A DNA stretch of 64,000 nt, from assembly GCF_011045215.1 (NCBI RefSeq), contig NZ_CP049201.1; one strand, written 5' to 3'. The stretch is from Escherichia coli. GTDB taxonomy: Bacteria; Pseudomonadota; Gammaproteobacteria; Enterobacterales; Enterobacteriaceae. The notes under the pieces were generated by a model. That model made no database searches. It was not told where the DNA came from and saw only the letters and a list, made by a program, of their open reading frames with translations. Of the stretch, positions 1,509-2,609 are shown in pieces. A program made the position numbers and the translations under genes. Position 1 is the stretch's first letter. Every line of letters begins with the position of its first letter.

Positions 1509-2609
1509 ATGAAATTAAAAATAGTTGCGGTGGTTGTAACTGGTTTGTTAGCTGCGAACGTAGCACACGCTGCCGAAGTCTATAACAAGGATGGTAATAA
1601 ACTCGACCTTTATGGCAAGGTTACCGCTCTACGTTATTTTACTGATGATAAGCGTGACGATGGTGATAAAACTTATGCCCGTCTCGGCTTTAAAGGAGAA
1701 ACGCAAATCAATGATCAAATGATTGGTTTTGGTCACTGGGAATATGATTTTAAAGGCTATAACGATGAAGCCAACGGCTCGCGCGGCAACAAGACCCGTC
1801 TGGCCTATGCTGGTTTAAAAATTAGTGAATTTGGCTCTCTGGACTATGGCCGTAACTACGGTGTCGGCTATGACATTGGTTCATGGACTGATATGTTGCC
1901 AGAATTTGGTGGCGATACCTGGAGTCAGAAAGATGTCTTCATGACATACCGTACCACCGGTGTAGCAACCTATCGCAACTACGATTTCTTTGGCTTAATT
2001 GAAGGGCTGAACTTTGCCGCGCAATATCAAGGCAAAAATGAACGTACTGACAACAGTCATCTTTATGGTGCTGACTACACGCGTGCCAACGGTGACGGTT
2101 TCGGTATCTCCTCAACTTATGTTTATGATGGCTTTGGTATCGGTGCGGTATATACCAAATCCGATCGGACAAATGCGCAGGAAAGAGCCGCTGCTAATCC
2201 TCTCAATGCCTCCGGTAAGAATGCAGAACTGTGGGCCACAGGTATAAAGTATGATGCCAACAACATCTACTTTGCAGCTAATTACGCTGAAACATTAAAC
2301 ATGACCACCTATGGGGATGGTTATATCTCTAACAAAGCACAAAGTTTTGAAGTGGTGGCGCAATATCAATTCGACTTCGGCTTGCGCCCATCACTCGCTT
2401 ACCTGAAATCGAAAGGCAAAGATCTGGGCCGCTACGGCGACCAGGACATGATTGAGTATATCGACGTTGGTGCGACGTATTTCTTCAACAAAAATATGTC
2501 GACCTATGTTGATTATAAAATCAACCTGATTGATGAAAGCGACTTTACCCGTGCCGTAGATATTCGCACCGATAACATCGTCGCAACGGGCATTACCTAT
2601 CAGTTCTAA
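1509..2609 (+). CDS. yddL: Outer-membrane general porin, OmpC/OmpF/PhoE family, full length (366 aa); K-12 is recalled to keep only an N-terminal fragment (yddL) here
   Basis: Signal peptide ending [19 protein letters not shown], typical porin N-terminus, and C-terminal aromatic residue (YQF). Position between yddG and the LRR genes. The symbol is by position only. Confidence 0.7.

Follow-up and report, generated by a model that had tools for sequence, protein, structure and literature searches.

The analysis described here indicates that a full-length porin gene located directly downstream of yddG in Escherichia coli is, with high probability, the E. coli positional orthologue of Salmonella OmpD and encodes a functional general-diffusion porin. 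This assignment follows from the shared gene order, the levels of sequence identity, the position of the protein in the tree and the homology of the promoters, taken together. The gene lies in a 64,000-nucleotide stretch of E. coli DNA (the window, in what follows), at a position where K-12 MG1655 carries yddL (96 aa), yddK (318 aa) and the pseudogene yddJ.

The core of this finding was already published in 2010–2011 and is correct but ordinary. Chaudhuri et al. 2010 (PMC2808357) listed the gene Ec042-1601 of enteroaggregative E. coli (EAEC) 042 as "an apparently functional ompD" and compared it with the K-12 nmpC pseudogene, not with yddL. Okeke et al. 2011 (PMC3079680) described O-island 62 of enterohaemorrhagic E. 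coli (EHEC), z2239-z2242, 1,548 bp, between yddG and narU, and reported matches of yddL to the 5' end of z2239 and of yddJ to the 3' end of z2242. These authors proposed that the EHEC/EAEC form, represented in strain 042 by an island of orfs 1601-1599, is ancestral, ascribed the K-12 state to an insertion of yddK, and counted the porin in a recent island (PMC3079680). Both z2239 of EDL933 and Ec042-1601 are the gene of the window: the O157 allele is 99.5% identical in protein, and an intact copy was confirmed at the same locus in 042. The present data correct the insertion and recent-island view of 2011 and the nmpC comparison of 2010. They add the precise ends of the deletions, the recognition of yddK as a chimera, the distinction between an ancestral porin and acquired leucine-rich-repeat (LRR) genes, the gene-order case for OmpD orthology, the frequencies in complete genomes, and the contrast between selection and codon usage.

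The porin and its slot

Table 1. Features of the region between yddG and narU, with positions in the window
Feature	Position	Strand	Basis
yddG, EamA/DMT aromatic amino-acid exporter	369..1250	+	ORF, Pfam EamA, annotation in near-identical genomes
Promoter and 5' leader homologous to Salmonella/C. koseri ompD	1340..1508	+	upstream alignment
Candidate CRP-like site TTCGACTTCGATCACA, conserved TCACA-containing block	1348-1363	+	inferred
Candidate -35 TTGTTT, weak	1400-1405	+	inferred
Candidate -10 TAAAAA, conserved	1424-1429	+	inferred
Predicted transcription start site	near 1436	+	homology to 69-nt Salmonella leader
Predicted Shine-Dalgarno AAGGA	1495-1499	+	inferred; leader AU-rich
Signal peptide (21 codons)	1509..1571	+	aligned with OmpC, OmpF, OmpN, OmpD signal peptides
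Mature porin, 345 aa and stop codon	1572..2609	+	ORF, Pfam, structure matches, alignment
CGGCAA microhomology, left copy; left breakpoint of 1546-bp deletion, porin codon 93/94	1784..1789		junction alignment
Rho-independent terminator-like hairpin	2621..2650	+	GACCAGCCC...GGGCTGGTT, then T run
LRR-A, first LRR gene, pseudogene here	2773..4037	+	two ORFs, 2773-3282 and 3369-4037
CGGCAA, right copy; right breakpoint of 1546-bp K-12-type deletion	3330..3335		junction alignment
CATTGATTTATC, left copy; left breakpoint of 653-bp K-12 deletion	3644..3655		junction alignment
LRR-B, EspR1-like LRR protein, intact here	4079..5353	+	Pfam LRR_4 and LRR_8
CATTGATTTATC, right copy, within LRR-B	4297-4308		junction alignment
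narU, conserved right flank of slot	5677..7065	+	ORF and annotation of related genomes

In the ORF listing of the window, 1509..2609 on the plus strand is the sole ORF at this place; it starts with ATG and encodes 366 residues ending in ...GITYQF. A profile search aligned residues 27-366 with the entire Pfam Porin_1 profile (PF00267, positions 1-337 of 337) at E 7e-135 and 450 bits, against a cutoff of 23.7, which makes this a full-length family match. The sequence also matches the solved structures of OmpC and OmpK36 end to end (E about 1e-127); at ~60% identity, these structures span the whole porin. The N-terminal 21 residues line up with the signal peptides, likewise of 21 residues, of OmpC, OmpF and OmpN; the peptide ends in A-x-A and is followed by a mature start of the AE(V/I)YNKDGNK type, column for column with the same three proteins, and cleavage of a Sec signal peptide is accordingly predicted from the alignment. 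No substitution occurs at the eyelet columns K37, R58, R97, R156, D128 and E132 or at the terminal F366 when the porin is aligned with OmpF, OmpC, OmpN and two OmpD proteins. D128 and E132 are part of the loop-3 motif PEFGGD and face K37, R58, R97 and R156, which we take to be the counterparts of the basic cluster K16, R42, R82 and R132 of the OmpF structure. The C-terminal aromatic beta-signal (YQF) is present. The terminator-like hairpin, with a 9-pair stem that includes 6 G-C pairs, begins 12 nt past the stop codon.

Since this is how porins of the family are known to mature, it can be envisaged that the precursor would be exported through Sec, that the signal peptide would be cut after AHA, and that BAM, recognising the C-terminal aromatic signal, would insert the mature protein, yielding a trimeric 16-strand beta-barrel with a pore narrowed by loop 3. 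Such a barrel, predicted from the full-length match to OmpC and OmpK36, would conduct small hydrophilic solutes. The first-pass annotation of this DNA had described a complete 366-residue "OmpC-family" porin with a signal peptide and a C-terminal Phe next to yddG: the ORF, the Pfam match and the alignment agree with this description, including family membership (Porin_1 over its full length), but not with OmpC proper, given the locus, the identity of only 61.9% and the tree.

The slot itself is bounded by yddG, the conserved left flank directly upstream of the porin, and by narU, which lies past the LRR ORFs and is followed by narZ. (The start of narU at 5677 was taken over from the annotation of a related genome, L002; the mechanical ORF starts at 5635.) The GC content is about 50% in the flanks, about 43-47% along the porin gene (44.5% overall) and 30-37% in the LRR genes. 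The fullest form of the locus, that of the goat isolate R32_14_1F, comprises the porin and a pair of paralogous LRR genes that are both intact: LRR-A (419 aa) and LRR-B (416 aa). The two LRR-A ORFs of the window (169 and 222 aa) match residues 1-160 and 198-419 of the intact LRR-A of that strain; the identity of the LRR-A proteins is only 65-79%, with about 99% for the adjacent porin. LRR-B, labelled type III secretion system effector EspR1 in O157:H7 (z2242), is 87.5% identical to the LRR-B of another genome, L017. In strain VREC0864 (L020 4776-5756), an IS5 element has taken the place of most of the LRR genes, having inserted directly behind the intact porin. When the window was scanned against Rfam over its full length, no RNA family was detected near the porin; the hits to a sok antitoxin RNA of the hok/sok type and to RydC, a small RNA, at 59219-59370 and 59930-59993, are unrelated to the porin.

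The order fdnGHI-yddG-porin...narU-narZ is common to the window, Salmonella and Citrobacter koseri. In Salmonella (L004, L005) and C. koseri (L006, L007), the locus reads fdnI-fdnH-fdnG/yddG/porin/GFA/smvA/smvR/narU/narZ, so that GFA-smvA-smvR follows the porin where the window has the LRR genes, and the latter are not found in the corresponding slot of either genus. In Enterobacter hormaechei, a deletion spans yddG and ompD, so the two genes are adjacent there too (PMC11874173). The window porin is most similar to the porins matched by gene order (77.8% identity in C. koseri, 73.7% to Salmonella OmpD), as against 61.9% to OmpC, 62.0% to OmpN, 60.6% to OmpF and 59.6% to PhoE among the K-12 paralogues. 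With Salmonella OmpD (NmpC; STM1572), it shares the yddG-linked slot, a very similar signal peptide (MKLK[I/L]VAV..), the eyelet residues, the C-terminus, and a homologous promoter, leader and Shine-Dalgarno region. In the neighbour-joining tree, it falls within the OmpD/NmpC clade, on a long basal E. coli branch. It appears likely, then, that the gene already lay between yddG and narU prior to the split of Escherichia, Salmonella and Citrobacter. The long basal branch and the lower GC content (44.5% vs 49-50%) leave a small chance that a foreign allele replaced the porin at the same site. A metagenomic porin, P0001, which is 85% identical to that of the window, begins with a signal peptide of the OmpC type (MKRKVLAMLVPALLVAGAANA) and is perhaps a chimera or a recombinant allele.

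The same clade includes E. coli NmpC of the DLP12 prophage and Lc of phage PA-2, which are 67-72% identical to the window porin. NmpC is treated as the E. coli equivalent of OmpD in the small-RNA literature (PMC3333887). Unlike the window gene, which is chromosomal and lies between core genes in the gene order of ompD, NmpC and Lc are prophage-borne, reside at another locus and have a signal peptide of the form MKKLTVA....

Upstream of the ATG, ~170 bp align with the promoter and leader of Salmonella and C. koseri ompD in conserved blocks (GATCACA, AAATAAT, TTAAAAA-AGT-TG-CATT, CGTTTA and AAGGAT). The distal 300 bp of the Salmonella/Citrobacter upstream region are missing in the window, and the upstream region is 258 bp long as compared to 525 bp in Salmonella. 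The start site was placed via the 69-nt Salmonella ompD leader implied by the numbering in PMC4911921. A consensus scan favours another candidate, ATGTCA-18-TAAAAT at 1434-1463, which, at about twice the shuffled expectation, is not decisive.

Deletions at the porin locus in K-12 and other E. coli

The K-12 MG1655 locus equals the window locus minus 1790-3335 (1546 bp), minus 3656-4308 (653 bp) and minus 1 nt near 4970. In an explicit reconstruction, the simulated double deletion was colinear with K-12, with 96.7% identity over 2251 nt and only two 1-nt indels. Short direct repeats are found at both junctions, the 6-bp CGGCAA and the 12-bp CATTGATTTATC, which encodes the LRR motif IDLS; therefore, K-12 is a deletion derivative. 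The MG1655 segment 1544384-1545714 (L001) corresponds to 3369-5353 of the window.

The K-12 proteins fit this picture residue by residue. Up to residue 93, YddL has the same sequence as the porin, after which it ends in KNL and a stop, so that yddL is, by this comparison, a 93-codon deletion stub. In YddK, residues 1-96 correspond to LRR-A 198-293 and residues 93-317 to LRR-B 66-290, and YddJ equals LRR-B residues 306-416. To judge from the alignments, yddK is an in-frame chimera produced by the 653-bp deletion between the IDLS-coding repeats and no independent gene, and it is the 1-nt deletion near 4970 that splits yddJ off yddK. The insertion of yddK into K-12, as proposed in 2011, is ruled out by this LRR-A/LRR-B chimerism.

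These results bear on three further points of the first-pass annotation. That K-12 holds but a fragment of the porin is borne out by the 96-aa yddL, there being no intact K-12 gene in the alignment, and the loss of a part of the locus by deletion is upheld by the colinear pairwise reconstruction and the microhomology at the junctions. The suggestion that the ancestral locus consisted of the porin plus LRR genes holds for the porin, which occupies the same slot in Salmonella and C. koseri, but not for the LRR genes, which are absent there and have a GC content of 30-37%.

The census covered 5426 complete E. coli genomes, with a gene counted as full when at least 80% of it was held. A full porin gene is present in 1111 of these genomes (20.5%), among them O157:H7, O55:H7 and EAEC 042; another 3156 (58%) have only the K-12-type stub, and 1159 (21%) show no match to the porin gene. 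All 16 of the 16 full-length hits that were evenly sampled span exactly 1101 nt. In the sampled stub-only genomes, the match covers nt 1-281 or 1-284 of the porin gene and thus stops at the breakpoint of K-12. In the empty slot, narU follows yddG after 272 bp: the counterpart of window 1328-5492 is gone and 77 bp of the yddG-proximal spacer are kept, which points to a second, independent deletion. At the junction, the empty-slot genomes (L008, L009; 5913-6184) contain an 11-nt filler, AAAGTCATTTT.

Decayed forms of the porin were found in the protein database as well: P0021, of 269 aa and without the N-terminus, is present on 168 contigs; in P0005, porin residues 1-279 are fused to the C-terminus of LRR-A; and P0013 is an Escherichia albertii copy with a disrupted 5' end. 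The loss of the porin within E. coli is most probably piecemeal: one 1546-bp microhomology deletion left the yddL stub in K-12 and in about 58% of the complete genomes, and a separate deletion of 4.2 kb removed the whole slot in about 21%.

Selection, expression and alternative views of the gene

The seven porin alleles that were translated are all intact, and their proteins vary at just 7 positions at dS values as high as 0.18. Where the two alleles of a pair are more divergent, dN/dS is 0.01-0.06, similar to that of yddG (in one example pair, 37 synonymous vs 3 non-synonymous differences), and it rises to 0.37 where merely a handful of substitutions separates the pair. Hence the intact alleles are under strong purifying selection. 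In the strains that keep the porin intact, the LRR genes have decayed via frameshifts, an IS5 insertion and deletions. The low dN/dS, the uniform length of 1101 nt and the decay of the LRR genes beside an intact porin argue for selection on the protein.

Salmonella OmpD is an abundant major porin. The codon adaptation index (CAI) of the window porin is 0.38, far below the 0.66 of Salmonella OmpD and the 0.72 of the C. koseri orthologue; by this indirect proxy, it does not rank with the abundant major porins of the OmpD group. Among the E. coli paralogues, OmpC reaches 0.82 and OmpF 0.66, whereas the quiescent porins OmpN (0.47) and PhoE (0.36), which are encoded at other loci and are 60-62% identical to the window porin, have similar values to it. 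The CAI weights follow Sharp and Li (1987), and the sole check on them is that ompC and ompF receive the high values expected. This OmpN/PhoE-like codon usage suggests low or conditional expression, and the porin is probably a working one of minor abundance or conditional expression, which would also explain why the gene is readily lost. A literature search under the locus tags ECs2076 and Z2239 to Z2241 returned only the O-island 62 paper and no expression data.

The first 80 nt of the Salmonella ompD coding sequence contain the pairing sites of three small RNAs, RybB, SdsR and MicC (PMC3333887, PMC4911921). The signal-peptide stretch of the window gene is the counterpart of the region where RybB and SdsR pair. 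A simple duplex prediction gave 12 contiguous pairs with MicC for Salmonella, 6 for the window allele and 9 for the allele of L017. The 8-pair RybB seed is kept in the window allele, with two of its pairs being G.U, and the SdsR site has diverged; full-length SdsR duplexes were long loop-rich artefacts that were set aside in favour of the 5' segment. By these simple predictions, the window allele would lack the MicC and SdsR sites known from Salmonella while keeping that of RybB, and post-transcriptional control of the porin may differ from that in Salmonella.

Several of these features would also be expected if the ORF were intact and the gene effectively silent in E. coli, that is, a decaying relic that happens to have acquired no disabling mutations so far. 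The CAI is about half that of the Salmonella and C. koseri orthologues, the AT-rich upstream region (32-34% GC) is open to possible H-NS silencing, the predicted MicC duplex is disrupted in the window allele, and independent losses of the gene have occurred several times (as the yddL stub, the whole-slot loss, P0021, P0005 and P0013 of E. albertii). We nevertheless consider a silent relic unlikely. The dN/dS of a neutral relic would approach 1; instead, dN/dS remains at 0.01-0.06, with only 1-4 amino-acid differences across alleles at dS up to 0.18, and the neighbouring LRR genes decayed in the same strains in which the porin remained intact.

The 2011 proposal implies a different history, namely, that the porin is not an ancestral enterobacterial gene and entered E. 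coli horizontally together with the AT-rich LRR island (O-island 62). It is in line with the description of z2239-z2242 by Okeke et al. (PMC3079680) as a single recently acquired island of 33-36% GC, with the GC content of the porin gene, which is lower than in the flanks, and with the presence of prophage porins, NmpC and Lc, among its relatives. This history appears quite improbable, however, in view of the slot in Salmonella and C. koseri, where an orthologous porin is preceded by a homologous promoter and leader and LRR genes are absent. Furthermore, the GC content steps down between the porin and the LRR genes, phage genes are absent beside the porin, and the dS of the porin tracks that of yddG (0.17 vs 0.24 in the most divergent allele pair), which indicates long co-residence with the core flank. 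Joint acquisition of the porin and the LRR island was accordingly judged unlikely on gene order, promoter homology, the GC step and dS. As far as these comparisons go, the LRR genes are a separate AT-rich addition, and only the porin is shown to be ancient.

Finally, the view that the gene is a second copy of ompC, as implied by its RefSeq name ("ompC: porin OmpC"), is hardly tenable: PGAP gives this name to the porin in every full-length genome sampled (hits H1-H8 and H41-H56) and the NCBIfam "porin OmpC" subfamily model scores it at 497.6 bits against a cutoff of 484, but this model is broad and is cleared by just 13.6 bits, the protein is no closer to K-12 OmpC than to OmpN or OmpF, the true ompC sits at another locus, beside micF and rcsD, and both the tree and the gene order group the porin with OmpD, so that OmpC orthology is ruled out by locus, identity and tree position and the name is true only loosely, for a member of the OmpC/F/N/D family.

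Consequences for annotation and for E. coli biology

The practical value of the OmpD assignment lies mostly in annotation clean-up. Owing to the RefSeq name, about a fifth of E. coli genomes seem to have two ompC genes, and "OmpD orthologue" is the better supported designation. It is the window porin, not the prophage nmpC, that truly shares the gene order of ompD. K-12 yddL has recently been suggested to encode a small outer-membrane protein that functions in osmotic permeability (PMC9976479), a view that is undercut by the nature of yddL as a 93-codon deletion stub.

Should the porin be expressed, its uneven presence among strains could have consequences for the uptake of antibiotics, for phage receptors and for vaccines, and strains with and without it might plausibly differ in their sensitivity to phages and colicins. 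In Salmonella, OmpD acts as a protective antigen. In E. hormaechei, loss of the porins OmpD and OmpC brings carbapenem resistance at the expense of virulence (PMC11874173).

Beyond the orthology itself, a broader reading can be offered tentatively, as a possibility more than an expectation: the chromosomal OmpD orthologue, not the prophage NmpC, would be conditionally expressed in about 20% of the strains, among them O157:H7, O55:H7 and EAEC 042, where it would serve as a lineage-specific third antibiotic route, a phage or colicin receptor and a surface antigen, under small-RNA control unlike that of Salmonella, in which RybB would still pair but MicC and SdsR would not. If so, the presence or absence of this porin would add to the differences between E. 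coli lineages in permeability and phage host range.
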